DNA of 24,021 nt from a virus (IMGVR_UViG_3300008267_000092:1-24021); one strand, 5' to 3'. Positions 2,834-24,021 are shown, numbered from the stretch's first letter. Made by a program: numbers and translations. The notes: generated by a model from the letters alone, not told the origin.

Positions 2834-2856
2834 ATTATAAAATAAATGGTTTAAAA

Positions 2857-2888
2857 TTTGGAATTGTCATTAATTATCACTATATTTG
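2857..2888 (+). promoter_or_regulatory. Bacteroidota housekeeping-sigma promoter P1 (-33 TTTG, N20, -7 TATATTTG)
   Basis: TTTG at 2857-2860 and TATATTTG at 2881-2888 with a 20-nt spacer. Intergenic, 26 nt upstream of ATG 2915. Same geometry at 10663 and 21418. Confidence 0.82.
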
Positions 2889-2914
2889 CATTAATATTAT
2901 TAAATATAAAAAAT

Positions 2915-3847: not shown

Positions 3848-3852
3848 CTTTT

Positions 3853-3891
3853 AAACCTCTTAGCTCAAATATGTAGTTGAGAGGTTTTTTT
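3853..3891 (+). terminator. Rho-independent terminator T1
   Basis: AAACCTCTTAGCT-caaatatgt-AGTTGAGAGGTTT forms a 13-bp stem with two G-U pairs, continuing into a 7-T run, 5 nt after the exonuclease stop. Confidence 0.8.
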
Positions 3892-3902
3892 AATTAAAAA
3901 AA

Positions 3903-6020: not shown

Positions 6021-9000
6021 ATGAATAAAATCGTTAGACAATCCTATAGTGGGATGGCTCAAGATATTTCGAAATCAAAATTTTCAAATCAATTTTATTT
6101 TGAAGGTAAAAATATTAGAATTGTTACCACAGACACTCAGAGTACAGGTTCGATAACTAATGAAAAAGGAAACTCTTTAATACTAAAAGTACCTAAACCT
6201 GTTATAAATTATACTACTAAAATTATAACTTACGGTTCTAAATCGTTATCTTATACTAATGATGAGATTAATTATAATTCTCAAAGTGGAGATCAAGTGA
6301 TTATAGGTCAAGGTACAACAAGAGATTATGTAATACTTTTTACAACAGATAATAATGGTTTTGATTGTGTATGGAGTGTTAAATATGAAGATTATGAATT
6401 AAAACTTTTGTATTTAAGAAATTTAAATTTTTCAACATCTAATCCAATACAATGTCTTAATAATTTTGAAAACTCAAATATTGATAAAATATATTGGGTT
6501 AATGGTGTTAACCAGATTCAATTTTTAAATATCAAACATTCTATTGATAACCAAGATTTAGAGGAATTAATAGATTTACCTGTAAATGTAATCGACATGG
6601 TTGGTAAATATAGTCTTAGTGCACCTAAGATTACCTCTATTCTTTCAGGAGGTACACATACGTCAGGTATGATTCAATATGCATACAATCTTTATAGATT
6701 AAATTCTGCACAAACTAAATTAAGTCCTTTGAGTGAGTTAATACCTCTGGATAAAGGTATCTTAGGAGGTGGTAATTTAAATGAAAATGTAGGTTCTATA
6801 CCTGTCATCAATATAAATAATATTGACACTAATTACACAAATATTCGAGTATATTCTATAAAATATACCTCTTATAATGAAACACCTAAAGTATCATTAA
6901 TAGAAGATAGAAAGATACCTTCGAAGGGTTCTATTGAAATACTAGATGATAATACTACAATTACAAGTTTGTCGTTAGAGGAATTTTTATTTTTAGGTTC
7001 AGATATAATCATACCTAAACACATTACTAGTAAATTTAACAGGTTATTTATAGCCAACTATGATGAGCTTAATTTTGATGTGAAGTTAGATATGAGAGCC
7101 TATTCATTTCCTCAGTTATCAACATCTGTAAATGTTTATAATGATATCGAGTTAGATGACACCACAGGAGATATTGTACCATCTGAACCAGTATTACAGA
7201 ATACTAGAAATATAACATCTACTTTTACAGATTCAATTGATGATACTTTTGATTCTATAAATTTAAATTACGATGTAAATAGATATTTATATAATTCGTC
7301 AATACAAGGTGGTGAGGGTAAATATTTGAAATATGAATTATTGCAGACAACGGACTATGCTGAAGACAGACGTTATTTTAAAGATGATGAAATATATCGT
7401 TTAGGTATTGAATTTTTTAATGTCTACGGTCAAGTTAGTTTACCTAAGTGGGTTAGTGATTTTAAAGCACCATCTGGTAATCTTAAAGGTCTTCTTAATA
7501 TTTTAAAAATTGAATTAAAATCTGAGTTTTTTACATGGTTAAATATTAGTTCTAATTTTGAAGCTGAATATTCGAAACCTGTAGGGTATAGATTGTTAAT
7601 TGCAGAAAGAACACTTTCAGATAGAACTATTATTGCAAATGGGGCATTAGGTTCTATGATGATTAATGATAAAAGTACAAGAGATGTACCGTTGGATTAT
7701 CGTTCAAATCCTACAGAATATCAATATGTTAAAAATAAAACAGATGAACTTGTGAAATTACCTAATTTCTTATTGAGAAATTGTAATGAAACGTCATTTT
7801 ATGGTAATACACAACCATTACAAAAAGCCTCACATTTAGCAGATATGAATAGAGCTCGTGAAAACTCAAACACAGAGGTTTGTAGAGCTTATTATGGTGA
7901 CGATGATACTTCAGGTAGGTTTTATCAATTTAATCCAATGTTACAGTTGTATTCACCTGAAATATTATTTAAAGAAAGTATTTCATTAAATAGTGGGTTA
8001 GAATTAAAAATAAAAGGTGCATTTAAAAATACTTATAATGCCGTATGGGCTAGAAAATATGAAGCTAATGGTTCGGGAAATATTGCTGATGAAGTTAAAG
8101 CATTTGAAGGTATTATTCCTGCTTATGCTAAAAAAGTAACTCAAATATTAGGTAATCCTAACGCACCTTTAGATTATGGTATTGTATGTCATCCTGGAGG
8201 TAGTGCCCCAGACCGTGTGACACATTCTAAATTTTATAGAGGATATGGTGTTGTGGATATTACAGATGCTTATAATAGTGCAAAATTTATTGAAATTTAT
8301 CAACCTTTTGTGGGTACCACATTACCAGATACTAAAGATTATGTAAATAAGTACGGTCAAGGTTTACAGGTTACAATAAATTCAACAGGTTATCGTAAAG
8401 CGTATATATCATATACTGTAACACCTGATGTTTTAAATTTATTAACACCTTACACAATATCTGTAACTTCTGATAATGAAGGAAATAATGTGTTAATCAC
8501 ACACAATGTTATTTCAGGTAGTTATACGATTGATGTACCTGTTAGAGAATCTCCACTTACAACAACCCCTAATATTGAAAAAACATTTGAAACTTATTTA
8601 AAAATAAAAACACCTGGTGATGTACCATTTAAAGGTACTATGGATTGTTTAGTTAAAATTGCAGATTCAGGTCCTACAGATATTAAAATTGAAGTCTTAT
8701 CTACAGCTAACCTATTTTCAATTAATAATCCTGAATATATTTCAACTAATGCTTTCTCATCTGCAGATTATACTAAATCTTATAAAATTTACGGAACTCC
8801 TGAATTAACTGAAAAAGGTCAATCGTTTACCATCTATAATAAAGATAGTAATTACAGATATTCAAATTCATTTACAGGAATATATACTGACGGAGATAGT
8901 TCTTGGGATAAAACTGGTCTATATGGTCGTAGAATTATAAATTCTAATTCAGATAACAATAGATGTATTACTTTTGTAACAGGACCTAAAAATAGTAGTA

Positions 9001-10634
9001 CACCTAATGATAGTCTTGTAAGACATTATGATAGAAACAGTTTAGAAGATTTATTCACAATGGCAGGAGGTGATGTAGGAGGTGAGGATAATTTATTAAT
9101 TGCTGAACTGGTTAAGACCAAAGCTGAGATTTATCTAGGAGGTATTTATGGTGGTAATAGTTATGAAGATAAACAACGTACAAACTATCTTGAAATAGGT
9201 GAATATAAAACTTTATCACCATCTGAAACATCATACACTTTATTATCTCCTGGTGATACATTTGTTAATAATTTTAGATTTTTAAGAGTTGTTAGAAAAG
9301 ATACTAATATTTTAGCTGAAGGGGTGTTACAACAGGAAGAGATTGTTGAGTTTTTAACTGAAACATCTATAAATTTAAAAAATCGAAGTGATACGAGTGA
9401 CAGTGTTTGGGATTCTAAATTTTTCAATTTAAATAGTGATTATCATACTTACAACAGAGTTTATTCACAACTTTCTGATTTAATTAAACGTAGAAATCTT
9501 AATTATAATTTTAAAAAGATTTCAAGTTATGACACAAACATCATATCATCTAAATTAAAATCCGCAGGTGAATTAATTGATAATTGGACAGATATTCTTC
9601 AAAATGAAGTTATGACCCTTAATGGTAAATTTGGATCAATAAACTCATTAATATCATTTCAGGATGAGGTTTATGCTATACAAGATAAAGCTTTTGCATT
9701 TATATCTATTAGTCCTAGAATACAAGTTTCAGGTTCTGATGGGTTAGCTGTACAATTAGGTACAGGTGCTATTTTAGATAGATATAAATATATTTCCACT
9801 GAGAATGGTACGCGTAATAGATTTGGTGTTATTGTTACAGAGAAAGGTGTTTATTTTTATGATGCATTAAGTAAAGCTATTACAATGTTTAAAGGTCAAA
9901 TTGAAGGTTTATCAAATACCAAATCAATGCACTCATTCTTTATAAATAATCTTGTAGAGGGTGATTTAGTAATGGATAACCCTGTGTTAAAAAAAGGGGT
10001 ATCTTGTGGTTATGATTATGTCAACAATGATGTATTTTTAACATTTCATCAAAATAAAATTGAAAATGGTTTATCTACATATTCACCTTTTACAATAGCA
10101 TTTAATGAAAATTCAAATACATTTGTATCATTTTATGATTATACACCATCATTTTACATTAGTCGAGGTAACTACTTTGTTACAACCGACCCTAATAACA
10201 CATCCATTTATCGTCAAGGTGTAGGATTATATAATACTTTTTATAATGTTAAATATCCTTCATATGTCACATTAAATGTGAACCCTGAACCAAATCTTGA
10301 TTGTGTGTTTGATAATATCAATTTTAAGTCTGAAACATACTCGTATGACACAAATACAGGCTTATACACGATAGATAATCCAGACAAGACCCTTACAGGT
10401 ATTAGAGCTTATACAGATCATCTAGACTCAAATGTAGGAACTTCTGTAACACCATTGGTTGTTGGTAGAAATAATAATATCCGTCGTAAATTTAGAGATT
10501 GGAATGCGTTAATACCTCGTTCAGGTAGAGAACGTATAAGAGGACCTTGGGTAAAATTGAAATTAGTATTTGACCAACAAGGTGATTATAAATTTATATT
10601 ACACGATATTGATATTTCTTATACTACGTCATAA
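6021..10634 (+). CDS. Tail muzzle/stabilisation protein (P22 gp10-like; crAss001 gp44-like), 1537 aa
   Basis: Large beta-rich protein starting with GMAQDISKSKF. Contains YFKDDEIYRLGIEF, IYGGNSYE, KLKSAGELIDNWTD, beta-propeller-like repeats and a C-terminal RRKFRDW...RERIRGPWVKLKL, all typical of crAss-like muzzle proteins. Position fits. Confidence 0.78.
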   Translation: MNKIVRQSYSGMAQDISKSKFSNQFYFEGKNIRIVTTDTQSTGSITNEKGNSLILKVPKPVINYTTKIITYGSKSLSYTNDEINYNSQSGDQVIIGQGTTRDYVILFTTDNNGFDCVWSVKYEDYELKLLYLRNLNFSTSNPIQCLNNFENSNIDKIYWVNGVNQIQFLNIKHSIDNQDLEELIDLPVNVIDMVGKYSLSAPKITSILSGGTHTSGMIQYAYNLYRLNSAQTKLSPLSELIPLDKGILGGGNLNENVGSIPVININNIDTNYTNIRVYSIKYTSYNETPKVSLIEDRKIPSKGSIEILDDNTTITSLSLEEFLFLGSDIIIPKHITSKFNRLFIANYDELNFDVKLDMRAYSFPQLSTSVNVYNDIELDDTTGDIVPSEPVLQNTRNITSTFTDSIDDTFDSINLNYDVNRYLYNSSIQGGEGKYLKYELLQTTDYAEDRRYFKDDEIYRLGIEFFNVYGQVSLPKWVSDFKAPSGNLKGLLNILKIELKSEFFTWLNISSNFEAEYSKPVGYRLLIAERTLSDRTIIANGALGSMMINDKSTRDVPLDYRSNPTEYQYVKNKTDELVKLPNFLLRNCNETSFYGNTQPLQKASHLADMNRARENSNTEVCRAYYGDDDTSGRFYQFNPMLQLYSPEILFKESISLNSGLELKIKGAFKNTYNAVWARKYEANGSGNIADEVKAFEGIIPAYAKKVTQILGNPNAPLDYGIVCHPGGSAPDRVTHSKFYRGYGVVDITDAYNSAKFIEIYQPFVGTTLPDTKDYVNKYGQGLQVTINSTGYRKAYISYTVTPDVLNLLTPYTISVTSDNEGNNVLITHNVISGSYTIDVPVRESPLTTTPNIEKTFETYLKIKTPGDVPFKGTMDCLVKIADSGPTDIKIEVLSTANLFSINNPEYISTNAFSSADYTKSYKIYGTPELTEKGQSFTIYNKDSNYRYSNSFTGIYTDGDSSWDKTGLYGRRIINSNSDNNRCITFVTGPKNSSTPNDSLVRHYDRNSLEDLFTMAGGDVGGEDNLLIAELVKTKAEIYLGGIYGGNSYEDKQRTNYLEIGEYKTLSPSETSYTLLSPGDTFVNNFRFLRVVRKDTNILAEGVLQQEEIVEFLTETSINLKNRSDTSDSVWDSKFFNLNSDYHTYNRVYSQLSDLIKRRNLNYNFKKISSYDTNIISSKLKSAGELIDNWTDILQNEVMTLNGKFGSINSLISFQDEVYAIQDKAFAFISISPRIQVSGSDGLAVQLGTGAILDRYKYISTENGTRNRFGVIVTEKGVYFYDALSKAITMFKGQIEGLSNTKSMHSFFINNLVEGDLVMDNPVLKKGVSCGYDYVNNDVFLTFHQNKIENGLSTYSPFTIAFNENSNTFVSFYDYTPSFYISRGNYFVTTDPNNTSIYRQGVGLYNTFYNVKYPSYVTLNVNPEPNLDCVFDNINFKSETYSYDTNTGLYTIDNPDKTLTGIRAYTDHLDSNVGTSVTPLVVGRNNNIRRKFRDWNALIPRSGRERIRGPWVKLKLVFDQQGDYKFILHDIDISYTTS

Positions 10635-10662
10635 AAAATATTATAAAATATATAATTAATTC

Positions 10663-10694
10663 TTTGGAATTATCATAAATATTTTGTATATTTG
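10663..10694 (+). promoter_or_regulatory. Bacteroidota housekeeping-sigma promoter P2
   Basis: TTTG at 10663-10666, 20-nt spacer, TATATTTG at 10687-10694, in the intergenic gap before the cargo genes. Confidence 0.8.
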
Positions 10695-10725
10695 TGTAAC
10701 AAATTTATTTAAGACAATACAATTA

Positions 10726-10752
10726 GAGGTGGGAGTAATCTCACCTTTTTTT
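10726..10752 (+). terminator. Rho-independent terminator T2 (inside the P2 leader)
   Basis: GAGGTGGGA-GTAA-TCTCACCTT stem with a GNRA tetraloop, running into a 7-T tract (10746-10752), 20 nt upstream of ATG 10773. Confidence 0.72.
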
Positions 10753-10772
10753 ATAATATAAAATTTTAAAAT

Positions 10773-13700
10773 ATGCCAGATCCTAAAAAGAAAAATGGTA
10801 AAGTTGCTACTGATCCTAGAGATATTCCAGCAACTAGACGAGATAGTCTTAATTTACAAAAACTTGCAATAGAAAGAAGTAATTTTCTTAAAAATGCAGG
10901 TTATGTTAAAGAACCTGACGTTAAAAAAGGACCATTTCCGTATGCACATCAAGATATGTATAGGAATTATCAGCAAATGCAAAAAAAACAACGTGATAGT
11001 ATTACTACAGAAGTTATTAGATTAAACCGTAAAGGTCAGCCTTATAGAAGTACTGAGGTTTATGATCCTAAATATTATAGACAAGAAAATGTTAATGGTA
11101 ATCCTAATAAGTATAAAAGTCAAGAAGTAGGTGATATTGGAGTTTTAAATCCTGCTGTTAAATACGGTGATTTTGATTATAGAATTGATCCTACAAAATA
11201 TGAAAGATGGGTTAATCCCAATACAGGTGATGGTGTAAATAATTATATTTATGATTTTGGAAGTAAATATAATCCCAAACCAGTAAAAATTAATTCAGGT
11301 AAAGGTACTGTAAATGTTAACAAGAATCCTGGACATAATAATCAAAAACAAGTACCTGTTAAAAATGTAACTGCTAATAGTCCATTAGATTATATGAATA
11401 GTTCAACTATAAAATACGCTGATGGTGGTCAAATACATAATGATTTAGATGGTAAATATAATAATTATTTAAACAATAATATGAAACAATACGCACAAGG
11501 TGGAAAACTTACTCGTTTTGACGAAGGTGGTACACACGAACAAAATCCTTTAGGGGGAATTCCTCAAGGTCAAGATGGTCAAGGTAATATGAATACAGTC
11601 GAACAAGGGGAAACCAAGAAAGGTAACTTTGTATATAGTGATAGAATTGCTTTAGATAAAAATCTTATTAAACAATTCAACCTTCCAGGTTACGTAGCGA
11701 ATAAGAGTGTATCAGAAGCATCTAAAGCAATAGATAATCAGTTTAAAGACCGTCAAGATAAATATGCACAAGAAACTAAAAAGACTTTATTAGATAGGTT
11801 ATCTCAAGCACAAGAGCATCTTAAAGCTCAAGAGCAGGCTCAACAACAACAGATTAATCAATCTATGCAGGCTAATTCACAGCAAGTTCCCGATATGATG
11901 GAAGGTCAAATTCCTGAAGGTATGGAAGAATATATGGAACAATCTCAATCACAAAATCCTCAAGAGGAAATGATGGGAGGTCAGCAACCGATGGCACGTG
12001 GAGGGTATATGAATAGATATGATGATGGAGGTTATATTTCAGATTTAAAACCTGCAGGTTTGACAGATTTGAGTCCTTATGGTGCACAAATATCAACTAA
12101 TACATCGGGATTAAATAATATACAACCTACTGAAAATAACACCCAAACTCAAAGTAATACAGATTATTCTAAATTAGCACCTATTGCTACAGGTGTAGGT
12201 AATATGGTTTATAATCAAGATGCACAAAAGAGTGCAACATTAGGTACTATAAATGCTGTAGGTAGTACTGCAGGAGGTACTGTTGGTAAATATGTATCTG
12301 GAGCTACAGGTTTATATGATATGGGTCAAGAAGCTTTTGGTAAATCAGGTGTTGACACATCAGGTAAGCAATCTGTAAGTGGTGCCAGTGCTGGTAGATC
12401 TGCAGGTTCAGGTGCATTAAAAGGTATGGGTACAGGTGCTACAATTGGAAGTATTATACCAGGTGTAGGTACTGTAATTGGTGCAGGAGTTGGGGCAATT
12501 GTAGGTGGAGTTACAGGTTTAATAGGTGGTAAAAAAGATGAAAAAGCTCAAGCTGTAAATAATAAAAAATACTCACTTAATATTAATAAGCAATTTGATG
12601 ATCCTAATTGGGCAGCATACGGGGGTACATTAGATGTAGGTGTTAAACCGACAACAGGAAATAGTACAATAAGACCTTCAGTTAAAATGTTAAAATATGG
12701 TGGTGATATAGATCCCCCTGTAAAATTTTTAAAACCACCTGCAGGATACAATACAAATCCTATTCAAAATTTTCATGATATTACAGGTGTGTCACCTGAT
12801 ACACCTGGTTATGGTCAAGAATTTGGTAAAAAAAGTAATAAATTATTGTTTGATTATAATGTCAATATAAAAGATCCTGATACATTAGCTTTGCAGAAAA
12901 AAGGTAAAACTACATATACAAATACCAAGGAAGACATTATGAATAAAACGTGGAATGACGTACAACAGAAAAAATACGGTATTACAGCAGAAGGTTATAG
13001 AGATATGCATCCAGAAAACGATGTACCTACATTGGATCAAAAAATACCAGATTTTGTACCTGAAACAGGTGTGTTAGCTAGTATGGAAAAAAATTATCAA
13101 GATGTTTTAGCAAAAAGAACTACTGAAGCTAATAAAAAATCAATTGTAGATAAGGCTGGTGACTTTGTTAAAAACCATTACGGAGAAGCTATGAGGTATG
13201 CACCTATAGCAATGAATGCTTATCAACTATCTCAATTAAAAAAACCTCAAGGTGTACAATATCATACATCAGGTGATAAATATAAACCTCAGTATGTTGA
13301 TGAAACACAACTTCAAAATATTGCAGCTCAAAATCAACGTAATCAGATTAATGCAGTTAGTGAAAGTGGTGGTTCAGAGGGAGCAAATCGTGCAGCTATT
13401 CTAGGTTCAGGTGTAAATTTCAATAGAGGTTTGTCTGAGGCTTATTTAAATATGAAAGATAGAAATATGAGTATGGATGATCGTGCTCAACAATTTGATT
13501 CAGCTATAAATTCTCAAAATATTGCAATTAGAAATAGAGCTATTGATGAAATGAGAGCTGATAAAGGTAATTACGATACTCAAAAATCTAAGCTTTTAGG
13601 TGCAATAGGTACAGATATTGGTTCTGTAGGTAAAGAGGAAGTCAATAAAGACCAAATTGCGGCAATGTTGGGTTATACTTGGAGAGGTAATTACATGGTT

Positions 13701-13853
13701 GATGAAAAAGGTCAACGTGTTACTGCTGAAAAAATGGCTAAAGATAAAGCAGCTTTAGAAGCTTCTAATGAAAAACCTGCATATAATTCTAAAACAGGTG
13801 AAAAGATAACATATGGTTATGGTGGATTTTTAAAAACATATAATAAAAGATAA
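10773..13853 (+). CDS. Virion cargo/ejection protein 1 (crAss001 gp45-like), 1026 aa
   Basis: Directly after the muzzle gene. Core GGTHEQNPLGG...VEQGET...FVYSDR, a Q/E/M-rich coiled segment and a glycine-zipper hydrophobic segment (GTGATIGSIIPGVGTVIGAGVGAIVGGVTGLIGG). No cysteines. Confidence 0.7.
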   Translation: MPDPKKKNGKVATDPRDIPATRRDSLNLQKLAIERSNFLKNAGYVKEPDVKKGPFPYAHQDMYRNYQQMQKKQRDSITTEVIRLNRKGQPYRSTEVYDPKYYRQENVNGNPNKYKSQEVGDIGVLNPAVKYGDFDYRIDPTKYERWVNPNTGDGVNNYIYDFGSKYNPKPVKINSGKGTVNVNKNPGHNNQKQVPVKNVTANSPLDYMNSSTIKYADGGQIHNDLDGKYNNYLNNNMKQYAQGGKLTRFDEGGTHEQNPLGGIPQGQDGQGNMNTVEQGETKKGNFVYSDRIALDKNLIKQFNLPGYVANKSVSEASKAIDNQFKDRQDKYAQETKKTLLDRLSQAQEHLKAQEQAQQQQINQSMQANSQQVPDMMEGQIPEGMEEYMEQSQSQNPQEEMMGGQQPMARGGYMNRYDDGGYISDLKPAGLTDLSPYGAQISTNTSGLNNIQPTENNTQTQSNTDYSKLAPIATGVGNMVYNQDAQKSATLGTINAVGSTAGGTVGKYVSGATGLYDMGQEAFGKSGVDTSGKQSVSGASAGRSAGSGALKGMGTGATIGSIIPGVGTVIGAGVGAIVGGVTGLIGGKKDEKAQAVNNKKYSLNINKQFDDPNWAAYGGTLDVGVKPTTGNSTIRPSVKMLKYGGDIDPPVKFLKPPAGYNTNPIQNFHDITGVSPDTPGYGQEFGKKSNKLLFDYNVNIKDPDTLALQKKGKTTYTNTKEDIMNKTWNDVQQKKYGITAEGYRDMHPENDVPTLDQKIPDFVPETGVLASMEKNYQDVLAKRTTEANKKSIVDKAGDFVKNHYGEAMRYAPIAMNAYQLSQLKKPQGVQYHTSGDKYKPQYVDETQLQNIAAQNQRNQINAVSESGGSEGANRAAILGSGVNFNRGLSEAYLNMKDRNMSMDDRAQQFDSAINSQNIAIRNRAIDEMRADKGNYDTQKSKLLGAIGTDIGSVGKEEVNKDQIAAMLGYTWRGNYMVDEKGQRVTAEKMAKDKAALEASNEKPAYNSKTGEKITYGYGGFLKTYNKR
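11412..13826 (+). repeat. Eight dispersed protein-level hydrophobic-x-x-G-G motifs in cargo protein 1
   Basis: KYADGG 11412-11429, QYAQGG 11487-11504, RFDEGG 11514-11531, PMARGG 11988-12005, RYDDGG 12015-12032, WAAYGG 12609-12626, MLKYGG 12687-12704, TYGYGG 13809-13826. Not DNA-level repeats. Confidence 0.65.
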
Positions 13854-13856
13854 TAG

Positions 13857-15698
13857 ATGCCTATCAATAGATACTCAGATTTAAGTGTTTCAGCATATAA
13901 TCCTATGTCAATGGAAGAATTGGCAATGGTTCCAATGATGAAACGTAAACAACATGATGAATTAGATAAACAATTAGCAGAAGCCGTTGTTAAAGTTGAC
14001 CCTTTAAAATATCATGAAGATGAAGCGTTAAGATTAAAGAATGAAATGGAAGGTAAAGTTGCATTCCAATCGGAGCAACTTGCCTCCCAAGGTATTACAC
14101 CTGATGCAAAATCTTCATTTTATAAGTTAAATAAAGAATATAGAGATTTAGTTGCACCTACAGGTCAAGTAGGTAAAATAAACCGCGCTAAAGAAATTTA
14201 TGATAAGGAACATGCTGCATTTATTAAGAACGCAATGGAAACATCTAAAATAGGTGGTGACCAAGCAGAACTTAGGTGGAATGAACATGTTGCTAAAAAT
14301 TATACAGGATATGAAGATCCTGAACAAAAACGCATTAAATACATTGATCCTTTAGGTGCTGTCGCATATCAAGATCAAGATAAAGATTTAGCGTTAGCTC
14401 ATAGTATATTAGGTAGTTATTCTAGACAAGTGAGTAACGCGGGTTACCATATAGGTGAAGATAAAGCTACAGGTTTATTAGGTGTTATAAATAGTAAAGG
14501 TGAAACTGTACATTCAGATAACTTTAAACAGGTAAATGAAGCATTAAAAGGATATAGTGCAAAATGGCTTAATCCTACTGGAGAAGGTTATAAATGGTCA
14601 AAATTTGCAGGTCAAGATATTGAAAATAATCGTCAACGTATTAAACATGAATTCAATTCAATGTATAATCTAAAAACAGGTTATTCAAGTGAACAATCCT
14701 TTAATCCTTTAGCTGGTCAGGGTGGTGGTGACGGTGAAAACCAAACTGAGACACCTACACAGTTACAAGAATCTGCAAATGTAGAAAACCCAATAACAAA
14801 ACATTTAGATGAATTAAATAATACAAGTGTTAAAGATATACTTAGTCAATTTCCTGCAGCGTGGTCAAATTTACAAACTTTAATAAAAAATAAAAAAGTA
14901 AGTCCTGACGAATTAAAAAAACAAGATTATGCACTACAGCAGATGGTTAAAGATAAACTATCACCCGCAGCATTAGACGCATACACAACAACATATAATA
15001 TAAAAGTTGCACAAGGGTTGATTCCAAAAGGAGAGCCTATGTTTGGATCTAAAGCTCAAAAGGTAATAAAAAATGATTGGTCACAACAAAAAGATTTTGC
15101 ATGGTCAAATAATGTGATATTACCTGACTCTAAAGAAAATGATATTTTAGCTTCTCCACAGTTAGTTAATGCTACAACACCTGCCGCAAGAAATGCGTTT
15201 GCACAAAGAAGATTTGACCTTGCACGTAAAAATAAACAAACATTATTATATGACGAAGAAGGTAATAAAATAGATTTAGATGATGTTAATAGAAAATCAA
15301 TTGAATTAGTAGGTCATTATAATCCTGCGAACATGCTTAAAACTTTTGGTGGAAATCCAGATAATATTGTGTCACCACATGTAGTATCTTATGAAGATGC
15401 TGATGGAGTTTCACATACAGCATTAATGCCTCGTGATGCAAATGAAAAAATAACTAATAATTATAAAGCTGCACAAATAATAAATAAAACAATTAGAAAA
15501 AGTGTTGTACATGGAAATGGATTTGTAAGTTTTACAAGTAAAGATTTTCCAATTTTAAAATCTAAAGGTATCGATAATCTTAGAGTAAAGTTTGATTCAA
15601 AAAATAAAACATATACCGTGGAAACTGCTGGTAAAAAATTCCAACCTATGACACAAGAGGAATATAGTGATTTTTGGTATAATAATTTAAATAATTAA
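13857..15698 (+). CDS. Virion cargo/ejection protein 2 (crAss001 gp46-like), 613 aa
   Basis: N-terminal NRYS...YNPMSMEELAMVP..KRKQHDEL helical motif. Tightly coupled between cargo 1 and the 1905-aa gene. No cysteines. Assignment by synteny. Confidence 0.55.
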   Translation: MPINRYSDLSVSAYNPMSMEELAMVPMMKRKQHDELDKQLAEAVVKVDPLKYHEDEALRLKNEMEGKVAFQSEQLASQGITPDAKSSFYKLNKEYRDLVAPTGQVGKINRAKEIYDKEHAAFIKNAMETSKIGGDQAELRWNEHVAKNYTGYEDPEQKRIKYIDPLGAVAYQDQDKDLALAHSILGSYSRQVSNAGYHIGEDKATGLLGVINSKGETVHSDNFKQVNEALKGYSAKWLNPTGEGYKWSKFAGQDIENNRQRIKHEFNSMYNLKTGYSSEQSFNPLAGQGGGDGENQTETPTQLQESANVENPITKHLDELNNTSVKDILSQFPAAWSNLQTLIKNKKVSPDELKKQDYALQQMVKDKLSPAALDAYTTTYNIKVAQGLIPKGEPMFGSKAQKVIKNDWSQQKDFAWSNNVILPDSKENDILASPQLVNATTPAARNAFAQRRFDLARKNKQTLLYDEEGNKIDLDDVNRKSIELVGHYNPANMLKTFGGNPDNIVSPHVVSYEDADGVSHTALMPRDANEKITNNYKAAQIINKTIRKSVVHGNGFVSFTSKDFPILKSKGIDNLRVKFDSKNKTYTVETAGKKFQPMTQEEYSDFWYNNLNN

Positions 15699-15699
15699 T

Positions 15700-18600
15700 A
15701 TGGAAGAAGATGAAGATGGATTATTAAATAGTAGTCCTAAAAATAATACTAGTCCAGGATTAATAGATCATCGTCAAGTAAAAAAAGGATTAGTTTTTGA
15801 TATTAGTAAAAAACACAACATCTCAAAAACTACACAGGCTGCAGAATCTTTTCACGGATATAATACAGGTTTAGGTCAATCAAAATATGATAAAGGTTTA
15901 ACTTGGGGTACAAATATTGATGAAGATGATGTTGCAGGTTCTCTTAATGAATACCGTGCACAACAACAATCAGGTATTGCACAAGTAGGATTAGGATTAT
16001 TGCGTGCAACATCTAAAGGATTACAGGAGGTTGCAAAACTTCCTGGAGTGTTAGGTGGTATGACTGTCGCAACTTTTGAAAATGTTGGAGATTTAATGTC
16101 GGGTAAAGATGAGCATTCATTTATTGATACTGCGTTTAACAACACGTGGATTAAAACAATTGACGAAGTTGGTGAAAAAATAAACACTGATGTTTTACCT
16201 GTATATACTGCAAAAGCTGTTAAAGAAGGTAATTTGTGGGCAAACATATCTTCAACTGCGTTTTGGGCTACAGATGGTGCAGATGGTCTAGGTTTTATTT
16301 TAGGAATGATGGTTCCTGGTGCAATATTTGAATACGCAAGATTAGGTGGTAAATTAATTAGTGCAGCATCTCAAAGTCAACGATTAGCTAAAATTACATC
16401 AATGTCGGGTAAGGCTGAACAAGCTGTAAGTGCTTTAAAAACAATGGGTATCACAGGTAAAAACATTGATAGTGGTTTAGCTGTAATGGGTAATACTTTA
16501 TTTGAAGCAGGTGCTGAAGCTAAAAGTGTTGGTGACGACTTAGATAGAAAAAAACCAGAGTTTATGACTCGAAGAGTTGCTGAAATTAAAAATAACCTTG
16601 TTAAATCAAATTATGCAGGTGAACCTGAATTTATTCAAGGACCAATGCAAATGGTTAAAAATCCTGATGGTACACAATCAATGTCATCTTCAGGATTAAT
16701 TCCTAATCCTAATTATAAAAATTTTGATCAAATTGCATTAGAGCAAGCTGAAAGTGAATATAAGGAACAACGTGCATTAGCAATGAGAAATACTTTTGTT
16801 AGCAATGTAGGTATTCTTTTAGGTCCTAATGCCATGATGCATAAAGCAATATGGGGTAAAGCTGCTCAAAGATTTGAAAAAACTGCAGAACAAGGTATAA
16901 AAGGTGTTGCTAAAAGAGTTGGTAAATCTGCTGAAAGAGTTGGTAAAGCATTTGCTGTTGAAGGTGGATGGGAAGAAGGTTCTCAAACAAGTGTTGAAAA
17001 AATGTATGTCAACAAAGCTATGAAAGGTTCTCTTGGTAAAGATGGTTTTGAAGGTTTTGTAGATGATTTTAATGTAGGTGATTTTGCAAAAGAATACTCT
17101 AATACGTTGGCTACAACTGAAGGGCAGAAAGCTATCTTTTTAGGGGGAGCTCTTGGAGGACCTATGATGTCGTATCAAGGTAGAAAAGAAGATGTTGTAA
17201 ATAGAACACGTACTAATGAAGTATTAGATGGTATTGATAAACAGATAACTCATTTTAATAATATATTTGATAATGATGTTTATCAAAAAAATGAAGATGG
17301 TAGTTTTAAATATAAAAAAGATGAGCAAGGTAACGATACAACTGAAAGATTATTAGATAGTAAAGCTGTTCGTAAAATTGCTCAAGATTTAAATTATACT
17401 GAACAACGATCTGCAATATTTGATCTTGCTGTAAAAACAGGTAATACTGAAGTTGTTGATAAATTAAAACAGGACGCAATTTTTAATTTAATTTTACCAT
17501 CTATACATAACGGTGAAATGGGTCTTCAGGCTTTAGAGCAACAACTAAATGAAAATTCTAAGTTTCAGGAATTAACTGAACGAGATGCTAAAGCTGACAA
17601 TAAGGATAAGACTAAAGAATTTGTTAAACAAACCCTTGAAACAGCTAAATATCTTCAAAAACAAAATGAGAAGTTTGGTGATTTTAGTAGAGATGTAATT
17701 GATTTAACTCATCCTACAGCCACACAAGAACAAAAAGATGATTTTCTTAATAAATTAAACACATCTTACTTAAATAGTAAACATGAATTAAGACAAGATG
17801 AAATAAAATTAAAAGAATTAGAAGCTAAACGTGAAAATATTTTTGAAGAATTAGGTGTAGATCCATTATATAATCCTGAAGCAGAGTTTCCAACTGCAAA
17901 AATGAAAAATGGTATTGTTTCAGATGAAGATTTAATGCAACGTGCTGAACGAACAAAAGCAGCACTTAATTCAAATGAATTATTAAAGAAAACAGAAGCT
18001 GAGTATAATGAATTAAAACAGAAAATAGATAATCATAAAAAAGATATTTCTGAAATTTGGCAAGGTAAAGATAAAATAGCAGGTGCATTTAGTAAATTTG
18101 TAGATAAAGATAATAAAGATACTGAAAATACTTCTGATGAAAAAGTTGCACAAGCTGATGCATTAATAGCAAATGTCACAAATGCTCAATCTAATAAAGA
18201 ATTAGATCAGTTATTACTTCCTCCACATATACCTCAAAAAACAGAGGCTGATTATAACAGGGAAACAGAGTTAAATCTTATTCAAAATGTATCTAAAAGT
18301 ATTAATGAAGATCAATCTATTGGTAATTTAAAATTAAATTTAGATAAATTAAAATCATTAAACATCAGTTCTTTAAAAATAGATGAGATTGCTAAAAGGA
18401 TTGAAGATAGAATTAAGCAGTTACAGGATGAACAAGAATCATTTAAAGATTATCTTTTAGATGCTATTAATTCTTTTGACGAACAATCTCAAAAAGTTAA
18501 TGATTTTATATCTGATTTAAATACTGAAATTGATTCATTATTAAAAACCAAAGATGTTTTAGTTAAAAGTTTAAATGAGCAAGATAAATCTCCTAGAGGT

Positions 18601-21417
18601 AGAAATGCTAAACTTATTAAACAGTTAATTAAAGAAGCTGAGAATGAATTAGCAAAGGTTGAAAAAGAACTAGAGTATTTAGAAGGTTTAAAAGAGGAGG
18701 CTCAAAAAGAACTTACCAAAATTGAAAAAGATTTAAGTTATATTTTTAATAGATATGATCAAATTGAAAAATCTGATTTTGCATCTGTACAAGATATTAT
18801 AGATTATTTAAATGATAATAAAGAATTATTTAAAGATCACAGATTTGATTTTGAAAGACTTTTAGTTAACAAACATTATACTGAACAAAATATTGAAGGA
18901 TTATCAACAGCTATTAATGCTTTAGAAAATTACGCAGATGTTTTAAAAAGAACAATACGTTCATTATTAGACAGTGATGAAAATCATTCAGAAGATCTTT
19001 ATTATTTACAAGAACAATTAAATGATGTTCAGGAAAATTTAACTACTGCTAAAAAAGATTTAAAATCTGAACAAGCTAAATTAAAAAGATTAAATCGAGC
19101 TATACTTGATAAACAAGCAATTAAATCTGTAAATTTAGAAGAGGATTTTTGGAAAGATTTACAGACGTTTAAAAAGGATAAAATTAATCCTTTAGTAAAT
19201 AACCCTATTATTGCTGAAAAAATTCAAGCTAAACGCGATGAACTTACACAACAAGAACAGGAACTTGCTGATCAGATAGCTGCTGAACAAACAGATCTGC
19301 AAGAAGATCAAATTATTAATGATCCTACACAAGTTACTGAAGTTGTAGCACCAACTGTTACACTCGATGAGAATGGTAATTTTCAATCTGAATCATTGCC
19401 TACACAAGTAGATGAGGATGAAGACAATGAGGTTGTTCATGCTGAGAATATGTCTGAGGAAAAAATTAATGAATCATTAAAAGGTGAAGTTGCAGGTGCT
19501 AAAGTTATTAGTACTAACAGAGAAACTGGTGAGCCGTTAGGTAATTTATTACAACAATTTGTTGACTATGAAAGAACCCCTATAGATAAATCTGAACATG
19601 TTATAACTATTGAGTTAGGTGATCTTAATAAAGCAAGTAAAGAAGTTGAAAAGGCGTATAAAAGATTATTAAAAGGTACAGCAACTATAGAAGATGTCGA
19701 ATTGTTAAAAGCGAAACTACCTATTAAAATAGTATCTAGTTATAAAAATGAAAAAGGTGAACAACCTTATTCTTGGATAGAGGATCAGACCGAATTTAAT
19801 CAAAAAAATCCTGACTCTAAAGAAATATTAGATAAACAAACAATGCCTTTAAGAGTACGTATAATTGACGAGGCTGTTAAAAATAATAAAGCTGTTAATA
19901 ATACAGGTTTAGCGGGATTGACCACTAATATAGTTAAACAATATCCTGGGTTACTTACAGTTCAATATACAGATGAAGGTGCTGCTAAAAACAACATATT
20001 TGATTTACAGGTTTTTGATGGTATGTCTGAAGATGAAAAGGTTGTTTATTTTCAAAAAAATAGTGCGTTTGTAAACTGGGAAGGTAATTTAGTAAGTACA
20101 CTAAATCCTAAAAAAGTAATTCAAAGTAATTTTGGTCAAAATCATAAAGGTGAAGTATTTTTAACTATACCACAAAATAATGGTAAACCGTTTTATTTAA
20201 AATTAAACGTAAGTAAGGTTAGTGAAGATAAGGCTGAAGCTATTTATGAAATGGTTAATGCATTAAGTCAGGTATCACAAACAATAAGTGCACCAACTAA
20301 CTTTCAAGCAATGACTGTTGGTAAGTTTTTTGAAACACTTGATGGAATTGACCCTGAATTAAGTAGTCGTCTACAAGATGTACTTAAAAATGAAATTGAA
20401 TTTGTTAAACAGTACAATAAAGGTGATGAGCGAAATGAAAGTTTATCTAGATTTTTAGATCTTCTTATTTATCATAAGAGTGAAAATAAAAAAACTGCAT
20501 TTAATTTAAGTAAAGACGGTAATTTAACACTTGGTTCATTAGCTGAACATTTAATAAGTGATTCAGATTTTAAACATCAATTAACAATTACTAAAGATGA
20601 ATTAGGTACTGAAGAAGCTAAAAGTGTTATAATGAATTACATTCAGTATAAAAGACACAACATTCTTATTACTAAAGATAATGTTAATGAATTTGTTTTT
20701 AACAATAAAGACTATATTAAATATCTTTTAAATTCAGAATATCCTATATTAACTACAAATGCAATAACAGGTAAAGATGAAAAAGGTAATCAAATACCAA
20801 CATTTCAAGGTTATAGTAATATTTATTTAAATCAGGATGTTAAAAATTCTAAAAGTACTACAAATATTTTAAGTGGTAGAGGTACAGTTGCACCAATAGT
20901 TAAAAATAATTTAGATGTTAAAAAAGCTGATATAGAAAAAAGAAGACAAGAAGAATTAAATAGAAAAGATGATTGGTTTTTAAGTTTATCTGAAAGTGCT
21001 CAAAAAATAACTTTAAATAAAATTAATGCTAGATTTGATGCAGAACTAGCTGCTTTAGAAGGTAACAATCAACAAGTTTCAGCTACACCAATTGAAATCG
21101 AATCTGCGAATGAAGATGGTACATTGCCATCTGTGAAAGCTAGATTGGCTGCAGCATTAGGAAATAAAACACAACCCACTAAAAAAGAAGATGTAAAAAT
21201 GGATGTAACAAATATTCAGTCAATGTATGACAACGCTAACGAAGATAGTAAAATGAACATAGTATTGGCGCTTGCTAAAACTTTAAATCAAACCGTAGAA
21301 TCTGATAATATTGAAACTGTTGAAGATTTAAATAATATATTTAAAAATTTAATTACTGTGGCACAAAATGAAACAAACAAATCTATTGATCAAATTACAA
21401 AAGAATGTGGATTTTAA
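15700..21417 (+). CDS. Large virion cargo/ejection protein (crAss001 gp47-like), 1905 aa
   Basis: N-terminal YDKG...LNEYRAQQQS..AQVGLGL motif, glycine-rich hydrophobic segments, EGGWEEGSQ motif and a long heptad-rich central region. Precedes the RNAP-like gene. Confidence 0.6.
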   Translation: MEEDEDGLLNSSPKNNTSPGLIDHRQVKKGLVFDISKKHNISKTTQAAESFHGYNTGLGQSKYDKGLTWGTNIDEDDVAGSLNEYRAQQQSGIAQVGLGLLRATSKGLQEVAKLPGVLGGMTVATFENVGDLMSGKDEHSFIDTAFNNTWIKTIDEVGEKINTDVLPVYTAKAVKEGNLWANISSTAFWATDGADGLGFILGMMVPGAIFEYARLGGKLISAASQSQRLAKITSMSGKAEQAVSALKTMGITGKNIDSGLAVMGNTLFEAGAEAKSVGDDLDRKKPEFMTRRVAEIKNNLVKSNYAGEPEFIQGPMQMVKNPDGTQSMSSSGLIPNPNYKNFDQIALEQAESEYKEQRALAMRNTFVSNVGILLGPNAMMHKAIWGKAAQRFEKTAEQGIKGVAKRVGKSAERVGKAFAVEGGWEEGSQTSVEKMYVNKAMKGSLGKDGFEGFVDDFNVGDFAKEYSNTLATTEGQKAIFLGGALGGPMMSYQGRKEDVVNRTRTNEVLDGIDKQITHFNNIFDNDVYQKNEDGSFKYKKDEQGNDTTERLLDSKAVRKIAQDLNYTEQRSAIFDLAVKTGNTEVVDKLKQDAIFNLILPSIHNGEMGLQALEQQLNENSKFQELTERDAKADNKDKTKEFVKQTLETAKYLQKQNEKFGDFSRDVIDLTHPTATQEQKDDFLNKLNTSYLNSKHELRQDEIKLKELEAKRENIFEELGVDPLYNPEAEFPTAKMKNGIVSDEDLMQRAERTKAALNSNELLKKTEAEYNELKQKIDNHKKDISEIWQGKDKIAGAFSKFVDKDNKDTENTSDEKVAQADALIANVTNAQSNKELDQLLLPPHIPQKTEADYNRETELNLIQNVSKSINEDQSIGNLKLNLDKLKSLNISSLKIDEIAKRIEDRIKQLQDEQESFKDYLLDAINSFDEQSQKVNDFISDLNTEIDSLLKTKDVLVKSLNEQDKSPRGRNAKLIKQLIKEAENELAKVEKELEYLEGLKEEAQKELTKIEKDLSYIFNRYDQIEKSDFASVQDIIDYLNDNKELFKDHRFDFERLLVNKHYTEQNIEGLSTAINALENYADVLKRTIRSLLDSDENHSEDLYYLQEQLNDVQENLTTAKKDLKSEQAKLKRLNRAILDKQAIKSVNLEEDFWKDLQTFKKDKINPLVNNPIIAEKIQAKRDELTQQEQELADQIAAEQTDLQEDQIINDPTQVTEVVAPTVTLDENGNFQSESLPTQVDEDEDNEVVHAENMSEEKINESLKGEVAGAKVISTNRETGEPLGNLLQQFVDYERTPIDKSEHVITIELGDLNKASKEVEKAYKRLLKGTATIEDVELLKAKLPIKIVSSYKNEKGEQPYSWIEDQTEFNQKNPDSKEILDKQTMPLRVRIIDEAVKNNKAVNNTGLAGLTTNIVKQYPGLLTVQYTDEGAAKNNIFDLQVFDGMSEDEKVVYFQKNSAFVNWEGNLVSTLNPKKVIQSNFGQNHKGEVFLTIPQNNGKPFYLKLNVSKVSEDKAEAIYEMVNALSQVSQTISAPTNFQAMTVGKFFETLDGIDPELSSRLQDVLKNEIEFVKQYNKGDERNESLSRFLDLLIYHKSENKKTAFNLSKDGNLTLGSLAEHLISDSDFKHQLTITKDELGTEEAKSVIMNYIQYKRHNILITKDNVNEFVFNNKDYIKYLLNSEYPILTTNAITGKDEKGNQIPTFQGYSNIYLNQDVKNSKSTTNILSGRGTVAPIVKNNLDVKKADIEKRRQEELNRKDDWFLSLSESAQKITLNKINARFDAELAALEGNNQQVSATPIEIESANEDGTLPSVKARLAAALGNKTQPTKKEDVKMDVTNIQSMYDNANEDSKMNIVLALAKTLNQTVESDNIETVEDLNNIFKNLITVAQNETNKSIDQITKECGF

Positions 21418-21449
21418 TTTGGATATATTAAATTAATTTCGTATATTTG
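21418..21449 (+). promoter_or_regulatory. Bacteroidota housekeeping-sigma promoter P3
   Basis: TTTG at 21418-21421, 20-nt spacer, TATATTTG at 21442-21449, filling the 52-nt gap before ATG 21470. Confidence 0.8.
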
Positions 21450-21469
21450 TATAAATATAAAATATAAAA

Positions 21470-24021
21470 ATGGCGTGTAAAAAAATAACAAAGACAAATG
21501 GTTCAGAATCTGAATTAATAACTACTTTAGAAAGCATTTATGAAAATGAATTTAAAGCTGAAGCAGGTTATTCTTATTTTGAATCTGATGTGTTTATATC
21601 AGAATTTGGAGATTATATTAAAGGTTATGAGGAAGGAGATCCATCATTTAGTGGTCGTGTAGACAATAATGGTGAACCTAAATTACATTATAACGAAGCA
21701 GCTAAAAAATATTATTTTATTAATGAAAAGAAAGAAGAAGTTTTCTACCCTCTTATAAAGAGAGGGTTGAGAGCAACTTTTAACTATAAACAGATTGATA
21801 AAATTGTTTCAAGATTAGCATTAAACTACTTTAAAAAATCTAATTTAAATTTCAATAATATTAAGTTTGAAGAAGGTGAAAAATTACCTAATTTAAAAGA
21901 CGATATTAGATTAGAATTAGTTACCAAAATTAATGAGTTAAAAAATGGTAATTTTAAAGGGAAATTTTCCGCAAAATTACTTGAAAGTTCATTAGAGAAT
22001 TTAGATGAATATGTTGAACGAGTAGATGCTTTTTATAAACAAATAGGCATTAAGCGTGTAGATAATAATGATCAGTCATCTCTTGAGTCTGAAGCTGAAG
22101 AAGGTAAAGATCCTTCGTTTACTAAACAATCTTTTGAAAAAGATATAAAGGATTCATTAACTACAAATATTAAATTAAAATTAGCATTATTAGAAGATAC
22201 TAATGATTTAGATCCTATATGGGGAGAACCTACTTTTATTGGTTATAATGAAGCTCACGGTACGTTATTAAATAATATTACAAATCAAGTAGCTGTTGAA
22301 GGTGAAGATTTGTTTGAGTTACAACGCGATGCTATCACCTTATTAGCTACTAAAAAACCGTATTTAAAGCAGTTATTATCCTACATGAAGGAGTTTACTG
22401 AAGAGGATAAAAATCAGTTCGCACAGGCTTTTAATTTACACGGTAATAATTATTTAGTATCCGAGATTCAAACAAAAACTAAAGTGACAGACCCTGTAAC
22501 AGGGGAAGCATCTGTTAAAAAAGGATTTACTCATGTAGTTAAACAAATTTCAGAATCAGGCTCAAAAGCAACACTTGTAACATCTGAGTGGGGAAATAAT
22601 TTTAAAAATTCTTTTTTAGATGATAAGAATAAATTAACAACTGAATCTAAAGAAATTCTTAGTAAAATTATTGAGGATTTAGACACATTAAAAACTAATA
22701 TTAAAAATGACTTAACACCTTCAGAGTTTGAAAAATTTACAAACGAGTACATTTCTTTAACTCGGAAGTTAGGTGTTGAAATGTCTGAAAATGGAATAAT
22801 TAACTTTTTAGATAACGGTGGTGAAATAGCGTTTGATATAAGTGCTCAAATTAATAAACTGTCAACATCTGTTACACAAACAGCTATTGCAGTTAAAAAA
22901 GCAATTACAACTTTTAAAAAAGTAAATGAAAGTTATAAAAATCCATTTGATACAGAAAGTGTATTTAAAAAGTTAGCAAAAGCTGAAGCTTTTTATTTAT
23001 CTGAAGGTTCTGAATCAAGTATATATTCAAGAGGTAAGAATCAATGGTTATTTTCATATCCATCTTATTTATCAACTCGTATATTACAATGGAAGAAGAA
23101 TCCTGAATTATTGAGAAACTGGTATAATCAATCAGCATATAATAAAGGTTCTGAAATAATGAAGTATTTGTTAGCGTTAGATCTTGACCAAAATAGAACG
23201 TATGAGGATAATTATGTTGAAGATTTAATTAAAGAAAGATTAGAAAATTTTAAATTAGGTATATTTAACTCATTTCAAGAAACAGGTAATGATAAAAATC
23301 AACAACAGTCTGCAACAGATTTATCTTTTAAAGATTACTTTACAGATAACGTAAATAAAGTATTACTTAACAGTTATGTTAGAACTACCACTCCTGCAGA
23401 TAAAGGTTCAGATTTACAGATTAAGACTGGATTTTTTATTGAATCTGCTAATTTTCAAGATGGTATTTTAAATCTTACTGCTAAAACAAAAGAGGTATTT
23501 TTTAACTACTTTAACTCTGAAGTTAACAGAATGAAAGAGGCTTCAAATGAAGTTGATACTTTAAAATTTACACCTGAAAAATTAATTATTAATTATCATT
23601 ATAAAGAAGGTTCTACAATTGATGCTAAAGATGGGAATGCATTTCAATCACAATATTTTCCAGAATTATCATTTAATAGTAAATCTAAAAATGAACTAGT
23701 ATTGAGTATTAAAGATCAACTCTATAATTTAGATGGATCTATAAAACATACTGCAGATATAAGTGCCAACCCTGAATTAAAACAATTAATTATTTCACAT
23801 CTTAATAATGTATTGTCTGAAGGTATTAATCAGACGTTAAATACCTTCCTAGAACAAGAGATTTTAGAAATTAATGGTGAAGGATTACTTTCAAATAAAG
23901 CTATAGATCAAGTAACATTTACAGAGTATTCAAAAAAGAATTTATTAAATTCTGAAAACGCAGCATTAGAAATTGTATCGGATTACTATATTAATAGTCT
24001 TATACAAAATGTTGAATATTC
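21470..24021 (+). CDS. Giant virion protein, probably the N-terminal ~850 aa of the crAss-type virion RNA polymerase (3' truncated)
   Basis: Translated by hand from ATG 21470 (MACKKITKTNGSESEL...) with no stop up to the window end. Absent from the ORF track because it has no stop. Contains TTPADKG, YFNSEVNRM, LIINYHY...GNAF...FPEL and DYYINSLIQNVEY, which resemble my recollection of crAss-like vRNAP segments. The catalytic DxDxD motif is not within the window. Confidence 0.68.
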   Translation, partial: MACKKITKTNGSESELITTLESIYENEFKAEAGYSYFESDVFISEFGDYIKGYEEGDPSFSGRVDNNGEPKLHYNEAAKKYYFINEKKEEVFYPLIKRGLRATFNYKQIDKIVSRLALNYFKKSNLNFNNIKFEEGEKLPNLKDDIRLELVTKINELKNGNFKGKFSAKLLESSLENLDEYVERVDAFYKQIGIKRVDNNDQSSLESEAEEGKDPSFTKQSFEKDIKDSLTTNIKLKLALLEDTNDLDPIWGEPTFIGYNEAHGTLLNNITNQVAVEGEDLFELQRDAITLLATKKPYLKQLLSYMKEFTEEDKNQFAQAFNLHGNNYLVSEIQTKTKVTDPVTGEASVKKGFTHVVKQISESGSKATLVTSEWGNNFKNSFLDDKNKLTTESKEILSKIIEDLDTLKTNIKNDLTPSEFEKFTNEYISLTRKLGVEMSENGIINFLDNGGEIAFDISAQINKLSTSVTQTAIAVKKAITTFKKVNESYKNPFDTESVFKKLAKAEAFYLSEGSESSIYSRGKNQWLFSYPSYLSTRILQWKKNPELLRNWYNQSAYNKGSEIMKYLLALDLDQNRTYEDNYVEDLIKERLENFKLGIFNSFQETGNDKNQQQSATDLSFKDYFTDNVNKVLLNSYVRTTTPADKGSDLQIKTGFFIESANFQDGILNLTAKTKEVFFNYFNSEVNRMKEASNEVDTLKFTPEKLIINYHYKEGSTIDAKDGNAFQSQYFPELSFNSKSKNELVLSIKDQLYNLDGSIKHTADISANPELKQLIISHLNNVLSEGINQTLNTFLEQEILEINGEGLLSNKAIDQVTFTEYSKKNLLNSENAALEIVSDYYINSLIQNVEY

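Follow-up and report, generated by a model that had tools for sequence, protein, structure and literature searches.

A crAss-like phage's virion RNA polymerase and the cargo proteins encoded beside it are nearly devoid of cysteine, and the few cysteines that they retain sit where one protein ends or the next begins. We analyzed a 24,021-base window (IMGVR_UViG_3300008267_000092:1-24021) that forms the start of a 94,131-base virus genome, assigned from its sequence to a crAss-like phage of the phi14:2 type (a relative of Cellulophaga phage phi14:2). The five cargo proteins encoded after the muzzle gene hold four cysteines in total, each at a chain end that faces the next protein, and the observation is confirmed, far beyond chance, among related phages. 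We consider it probable that the three giant proteins of the block (a gp67-like protein, the polymerase, and a gp65-like protein) are connected in the virion through two disulfides, each running from the tail of one protein to the head of the next, an arrangement that would serve ordered ejection. The genes and codons concerned are the following.

6021..10634, + strand: muzzle protein, 1537 amino acids, 9 Cys (Pfam crAss_MUZ, E = 4e-199, and crAss_MUZ_C)
10773..13853, + strand: cargo protein 1-like, 1026 amino acids, 0 Cys (Pfam crAss_CARG1, E = 4e-22)
13857..15698, + strand: cargo protein 2-like, 613 amino acids, 0 Cys, at the position of phi14:2 gp68 and crAss001 gp46
15700..21417, + strand: gp67-like protein, first of the putative chain, 1905 amino acids, sole Cys 1903 (BLASTP versus phi14:2 g067, E = 2e-56)
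21406..21408, + strand: TGT codon of Cys 1903, third from the C-terminus (...TKECGF, then stop), as read in the sequence
21470..24021, + strand: virion RNA polymerase, the first 850 residues of which lie in the window (PDB 6VR4, E = 4.6e-234)
21476..21478, + strand: TGT codon of polymerase Cys 3 (MACKK), as read in the sequence
genome 21470-30196, + strand: whole virion RNA polymerase, middle protein of the putative chain, 2908 amino acids, Cys 3 and Cys 2905 (MACKK ... KKYCNPS, then stop)
genome 30199-30702: ferritin-like gene, 167 amino acids, 3 internal Cys (Pfam Ferritin, E = 3e-20)
genome 30704-34825: gp65-like protein, 1373 amino acids, sole Cys 3 (MVCPNK; BLASTP versus phi14:2 gp65, E = 5e-100)

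The background rate of cysteine, measured in 65 other open reading frames (ORFs) of the same genome, is 1.20% (230/19,156 residues). At that rate the five cargo proteins (7,825 residues) should contain about 94 cysteines rather than four (P = 3e-35); their frequency of 0.05% places them among cysteine-suppressed ejection proteins. All four occupy the four ends that face the next protein, with P = 4e-12 for one cysteine in each facing four-residue stretch. For the 4,394 cargo residues visible in the window, the corresponding figures are 2 observed against about 53 predicted (P = 1e-20), and two randomly placed cysteines would fall in both facing three-residue stretches with a chance of about 9e-7. 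Terminal cysteines are otherwise rare in this genome, occurring in the first five residues of 2/65 other ORFs and in the last five of 1/65. An earlier, sequence-only reading of the window had given the ORF coordinates, the cysteine positions, and the counts, including the 9 cysteines in the 1537 residues of the muzzle protein, and all of these stand. It had also set as a test that the part of the polymerase beyond the window should contain few cysteines; these other 2,058 residues hold one, Cys 2905. The first, middle, and last giant proteins thus carry one, two, and one terminal cysteines, which fits the need of a linear chain. The 1026- and 613-residue cargo proteins, which are free of cysteine, lie outside the chain, as does the muzzle protein, which serves as an internal contrast for cysteine content.

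The identity of the block is well defined. The polymerase is a two-barrel enzyme with a catalytic DFDxD loop, homologous to phi14:2 gp66 (PDB 6VR4_A, at the E-value listed above); the GxDFDID loop is present, and G565, D567, D569, and D571 are invariant in the polymerase alignment (A1). The flanking giant proteins are orthologues of gp67 and gp65 by the BLASTP matches listed, and the zincin motif HExxH of the gp65-like protein, HEIVH, aligns with HEIMH in phi14:2 gp65. Pfam hits on the preceding ORFs show that the block follows genes for the muzzle and for cargo proteins. The orthologous blocks of phi14:2 (gp67-gp66-gp65, where gp66 is PDB 6VR4) and crAss001 (gp47-gp49-gp50) match this phage in gene order after muzzle, cargo 1, and cargo 2, and also in the 1/2/1 pattern of terminal cysteines. 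In phi14:2 and crAss001, proteomics and transcription assays established that the block proteins are packed and ejected; by orthology, the window proteins are presumably virion-packed and ejected as well. The phage analyzed here departs from phi14:2 in two respects. Unlike phi14:2 gp66, its polymerase has a C-terminal superfamily 1 helicase of the Dda/RecD type, yet still ends in cysteine; this helicase part (Pfam AAA_30, AAA_19, and UvrD_C_2) spans residues about 2420-2870, or genome positions about 28730-30080, and the domain contains no cysteine. In addition, the gene for the third protein is preceded by an inserted ferritin gene, which is absent from phi14:2 and from most relatives that keep the cysteine pairs.

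Nucleotide-level relatives of the region were not retrieved, as megablast of the region versus phages gave no match. A tblastn search with the last 399 residues of the 1905-residue protein versus GenBank phages also gave no match because this tail is too divergent; the whole-protein BLASTP search gave the orthology to phi14:2 g067. Regarding the layout of the window, a terminator-like hairpin and T run (GGTGGGAGTAATCTCACC TTTTTTT) follow the muzzle gene (10635-10772). The 1905-residue protein and polymerase genes are separated by a 52-base A+T-rich spacer (21418-21469), whereas other cargo genes lie 1-3 bases apart.

To assess conservation, we surveyed 80 IMG/VR loci with a polymerase-core alignment together with GenBank phages, dereplicated at 70% core identity to 56 lineages. 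The survey covered Steigviridae, Intestiviridae, Suoliviridae, and Fipvunavirus. A junction cysteine was scored when it lay ≤10 residues from the upstream C-terminus or ≤10 residues from the downstream N-terminus. The sequence-only reading had proposed that the two terminal cysteines should be conserved and co-occur in homologues, and this is what the survey returned. Consecutive module proteins meet at 76 junctions, of which 71 carry both cysteines, 2 carry just the N-side cysteine, and 3 carry none; the C-side cysteine never occurs alone (Fisher P = 1.4e-4 for co-occurrence). As to position, the N-terminal cysteine is residue 3 in 40/73 cases, residue 4 in 17, and residue 5 in 11 (68/73 at residues 3-5), and the C-terminal cysteine falls within the last four residues in 63/71. 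Orthologues as distant as those of phi14:2 (26-31% identity) show the same 1/2/1 arrangement, with the only cysteine of g067 (1797 amino acids) as its last residue, Cys 3 and Cys 2179 in g066 (2180 amino acids), and only Cys 3 in g065 (1421 amino acids). The rule is obeyed in Steigviridae (phi14:2, the crAss001-like PhiCrAssBcn22, DAC15, and cr116_1), in Intestiviridae (p-crAssphage and cr8_1), in Suoliviridae (cr118_1, cr50_1, cr7_1, cr131_1, and cr272_1), and in the Fipvunavirus phages of Flavobacterium.

The ends that would not take part in a chain behave differently. A C-terminal cysteine is found in 0/43 lineages for the last module protein, and an N-terminal cysteine in 4/50 for the first; in all four of these, the polymerase is the first module protein on its strand or the locus is cut. 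The junction between the cargo-2-like and gp67-like proteins, used as a control, has no cysteine on either side in 43/43 lineages, and proteins at the cargo-2 position in the relatives contain one cysteine in 27,086 residues. Away from the ends, cysteine makes up 0.043% of residues (129 in 299,376). We regard chance, annotation artefact, or AT-rich composition bias as carrying a negligible probability. The genome, at 25-34% G+C, does lower cysteine use somewhat; however, the other ORFs retain 1.20% cysteine, the pattern occurs in 56 lineages whose termini share as little as 16% identity, and the survey refutes this explanation.

Correct gene boundaries mattered for these counts. Stop assignment at four loci (L042, L045, L069, and L083) was settled by counting in-frame TAG and TGA codons. 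L045, L069, and L083 each have a single real in-frame stop, flanked by a cysteine pair; L042 has four TGAs, one being the true stop between proteins, again with a flanking pair, and three lying 5' of the true start. Survey loci L035-L089 read TAG as Gln. Internal cysteines differ by lineage, in that table-11 relatives of phi14:2 mostly have none and gut lineages, many of them TAG-recoded, have several to dozens; gp23 of cr272_1 has 39 cysteines in 6,386 residues and keeps the terminal pair. These lineage differences may reflect oxic versus anoxic habitats.

Gene fusion and splitting supply a second line of evidence. In 24 lineages gp67 and the polymerase are separate proteins and in 29 they form one, and this state changed at least five times on the polymerase-core tree. 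A hidden Markov model of the polymerase N-terminus (alignment A3) matched the start in close relatives only; fusion points in distant fused proteins were therefore estimated from the position of the catalytic core. Fused proteins have no cysteine pair at the fusion point: across the 29, cysteine density in an 800-residue span at the expected point is 0.06%, equal to the internal background. Eight fused proteins (3,500-5,300 residues) have a single cysteine, near the C-terminus (e.g., 4419 amino acids in Fpv20 and 5322 in L023). In L086, p-crAssphage gp44, and cr8_1 gp93, the polymerase forms a single chain with the last protein, and the C-terminal cysteine is absent. Conversely, the gp65-like protein of L024 (14611-21815) is split in two, and an extra cysteine pair appears at the extra junction. 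The coupling also withstands rearrangement, as in crAss001-like phages and DAC15, where the gp47-like gene lies on the opposite strand to the polymerase gene; its product still ends in cysteine and the polymerase still starts with one. What was observed directly is how the cysteines are placed, that this placement is conserved, and that it is coupled to gene architecture.

This coupling bears on whether the terminal cysteines could act singly, each forming homodimers or anchoring its protein to the portal, inner capsid, or tail barrel. Tail and portal-vertex proteins of crAss001 do use inter-subunit disulfides, and p-crAssphage gp47 has a C-terminal cysteine without an evident partner. The latter (BK010471; L008:5138-7711, 857 amino acids, at the cargo-1 position) has a single cysteine, Cys 856; the next protein has no N-terminal cysteine, and Cys 856 falls outside the rule. 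Cysteines acting independently, however, give no account of why they are missing where the first protein starts and where the last one ends, why the two sides of a junction have or lack cysteine together (both in 71, neither in 3, the C side alone in none), or why an additional split brings exactly one additional pair. We therefore judge this explanation improbable.

A further possibility is that there is no covalent link and that the cysteines belong to short signals that act, for example, in procapsid packaging, in processing carried out by the zincin-like protease, or in the translation of neighbouring genes. The N-terminus of gp65-like proteins often reads C-P-N-x-N, a motif that exceeds one residue, and the polyprotein forms are thought to be cleaved. 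The termini are nonetheless unconserved except for the cysteine. When the final 150 residues of 15 gp67-like proteins are aligned (mean identity 20%), cysteine is the only invariant column. No cysteine occurs at the fusion point of fused proteins, so it is not part of a cleavage site, and retention of the pair across opposite strands or an intervening gene (ferritin, in this phage) places the signal in the proteins rather than in the junction DNA and excludes a translational role. On these grounds, a packaging or processing signal seems quite improbable, and a translational-coupling signal was rejected. Two other candidates were also discarded. Split inteins need an N-intein of ~100 residues starting with Cys and a C-intein of ~35 residues followed by Cys, Ser, or Thr; there is no room for them, since one cysteine lies 1-9 residues before its protein ends and the other among residues 2-7 of the protein that follows, with unconserved flanks. 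Lipoprotein-type acylation would need a signal peptide or lipobox, and neither is present.

Three apparent junctions, each missing at least one cysteine of the pair, proved to be pseudo-junctions: one is a broken ORF in L068, and in cr116_1 and cr131_1 an intron-like insertion interrupts the DFDxD motif. The pseudo-junctions of cr116_1 and cr131_1 have no N-side cysteine, and the read-through ORF of cr116_1 happens to end in cysteine. In cr116_1 (NC_055882; L096:15981-16820) and cr131_1 (NC_055902; L094:15465-16258), an insert of ~0.8 kb lies inside the polymerase GSDFDxD and holds a 215-242-residue ORF annotated like 'gene 17 product of phage PVPSE1', after which the downstream ORF resumes the motif; each insert resembles a group I intron that carries a homing endonuclease. 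Separately, L001 and L002 (1981-2541) have a 186-residue ORF with 4 cysteines between the cargo-1-like and cargo-2-like genes. It starts MANRY, as does the next gene (2534-4513), and is likely a mobile insertion that has copied the start of its target.

We propose that the conserved cysteines stitch the giant proteins together. In the phage analyzed here, Cys 1903 of the gp67-like protein would bond to polymerase Cys 3, and polymerase Cys 2905 to Cys 3 of the gp65-like zincin-motif protein. The product would be a single, almost linear thread some 6,200 residues long, the post-translational counterpart of the polyprotein that other crAss lineages encode. Because the cysteines lie 1-5 residues from the chain ends, each joint would leave only a short stub, so that passage through the tail channel is conceivable. 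The thread would leave like an unfolded single chain, N-terminus first, and the order of exit would thereby be fixed; on reaching the reducing cytoplasm, the links would be cut and the three proteins would come apart. The purge of other cysteines would avert wrong cross-links, in the packed capsid or the periplasm, that could block threading. Several reported properties of related phages are compatible with this scheme. For crAss001, Bayfield et al. (PMC10172136) argue that the cargo has to unfold in part before it can leave, that cargo protein 1 goes out N-terminus first, and that the order of exit hinges on cargo-cargo interactions; crAss001 virions also contain structural disulfides (PMC10172136). 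In certain phages these three proteins form a single polyprotein (Drobysheva et al., bioRxiv 10.1101/2020.03.07.982082). We lean, somewhat less firmly, toward a more general formulation, in which crassviruses make a post-translational polyprotein, a single-disulfide thread of >6,000 residues that is ejected as one chain and dismantled by the host cytoplasm, with fusion and stitching evolutionarily interchangeable.

The sequence-only reading had envisaged a tail-to-head link, either a disulfide or a shared metal site, between the polymerase and the preceding protein. That idea has gained from the co-conservation of the two cysteines, their loss on fusion, and their persistence on opposite strands. 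Its scale was too small, as the pattern points to three proteins and two links. A disulfide is the simplest link between two single thiols, although a bridging metal or a different thiol link would likewise be compatible with a single cysteine at each terminus. We infer from the pattern that the link is a disulfide; it would govern the order of exit rather than co-packaging.

The nature of the link deserves scrutiny, as the pattern shows pairing and not chemistry. The facing cysteines could instead bind a bridging metal (zinc, iron, or copper), possibly in a zinc-hook-like site built from the four termini of dimers, or could form a Lys-Cys N-O-S bridge. Lysine is strikingly common beside both terminal cysteines: Lys or Arg lies ≤2 residues from the C-terminal cysteine in 54/71 cases versus 43% expected, with Lys enriched, and Lys is common at positions -2 and +1 of that cysteine and also after the N-terminal cysteine. 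The enrichment also fits a reactive thiolate at the C-terminal cysteine. A metal link could form in the reducing cytoplasm, and the polymerase and gp65-like genes of this phage flank a ferritin gene. Against a metal, neither cysteine is accompanied by a further conserved ligand, whether His, Asp, Glu, or Cys, the cysteine being the only invariant column; a single thiol per chain makes a poor metal site; and the ferritin gene is missing from phi14:2 and from most relatives with cysteine pairs. A non-disulfide link is accordingly, in our estimate, unlikely. The ferritin-like gene itself sits within the second cysteine-pair junction, and the three internal cysteines of its product suggest that it is not threaded cargo. 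Any tie between ferroxidase chemistry of the ferritin and thiol oxidation is pure speculation.

Several considerations weigh against the disulfide chain. Virion assembly takes place in the reducing cytoplasm, and a search of this genome found no thioredoxin or glutaredoxin; the oxidant and the time of bond formation must therefore be assumed. A search of this genome for Erv1/Alr also gave no match, but neither did control genomes, which makes that result uninformative. Many carriers of the pattern infect gut bacteria that are strict anaerobes, a setting in which spontaneous oxidation is less readily assumed, and gut lineages tolerate up to about 39 internal cysteines per protein. Both the purification and the crystallisation of recombinant gp66 were done in 1 mM dithiothreitol; the accessible literature holds neither an observed bond nor a non-reducing analysis of virions. 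Complex prediction with the last 150 residues of the 1905-residue protein and the first 150 of the polymerase, with alignments supplied, returned a score of 0.00 and low pLDDT (per-residue confidence), which speaks neither for nor against the link. Two loci also break the rule. The upstream cysteine of L014 lies 32 residues from the end, an unexplained exception. In L026 (13209-21762), the main exception, the polymerase lacks a C-terminal cysteine and is followed by a 1161-residue protein without a terminal cysteine; further on come an 871-residue protein with Cys 3 and a cysteine as its last residue, and then a protein with Cys 4. Pfam searches of the L026 exception proteins yielded nothing useful.

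Comparison with known systems helps to delimit what is new. In Schitoviridae (N4-like phages), the giant virion RNA polymerase and its companions, gp50/gp51/gp52, are nearly cysteine-free, as here, and this suppression is explained by passage through the envelope (PMC11445570); the same source bears out the statement in the sequence-only reading that the N4 virion polymerase has no cysteine. The two systems nevertheless differ. N4-type proteins have essentially no cysteine and their polymerase is one chain, whereas the proteins analyzed here have a defined cysteine at every inter-protein junction, so that complete absence without a conserved position is not the pattern observed; N4-type and crAss polymerases also differ in fold. 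AB toxins such as the clostridial neurotoxins and diphtheria toxin resemble the proposed thread in function only, in that one disulfide links two chains through a narrow path until cytosolic release (PMC6899712). There is no homology; toxin chains arise from a nicked single polypeptide and are not bonded end to end, whereas the phage proteins are separate gene products. The S-S bond between chains, a feature of disulfide-linked translocated proteins, is here a prediction drawn from the sequence pattern. The closest precedent within crassvirus particles is the set of inter-subunit disulfides in the crAss001 tail and portal vertex (PMC10172136), which stabilise a fixed shell and tail; none is reported for the cargo, which is mostly unresolved in that structure.

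The searchable literature on crAss polymerases, cargo, and phage ejection proteins, which did not extend to the published version of Drobysheva et al., makes no mention of these cysteines. The protein block is known; the terminal-cysteine rule and end-to-end stitching are an undescribed variant of cysteine-poor ejection proteins, virion disulfides, and redox-released chains. As a practical tool, the rule shows where proteins truly begin and end in crAss genomes that are recoded or poorly annotated, and it exposed four genetic-code misreadings and three pseudo-junctions in our survey. It also accounts for the free fusing and splitting of these genes. More broadly, it bears on how megadalton amounts of folded protein could pass in order through a narrow podovirus-like tail, and it offers a concrete, cheaply testable mechanism for the phage order that is most abundant in the human gut, as well as for its marine relatives. 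It suggests that a phage may use a delivery principle, redox-released in the manner of AB toxins.

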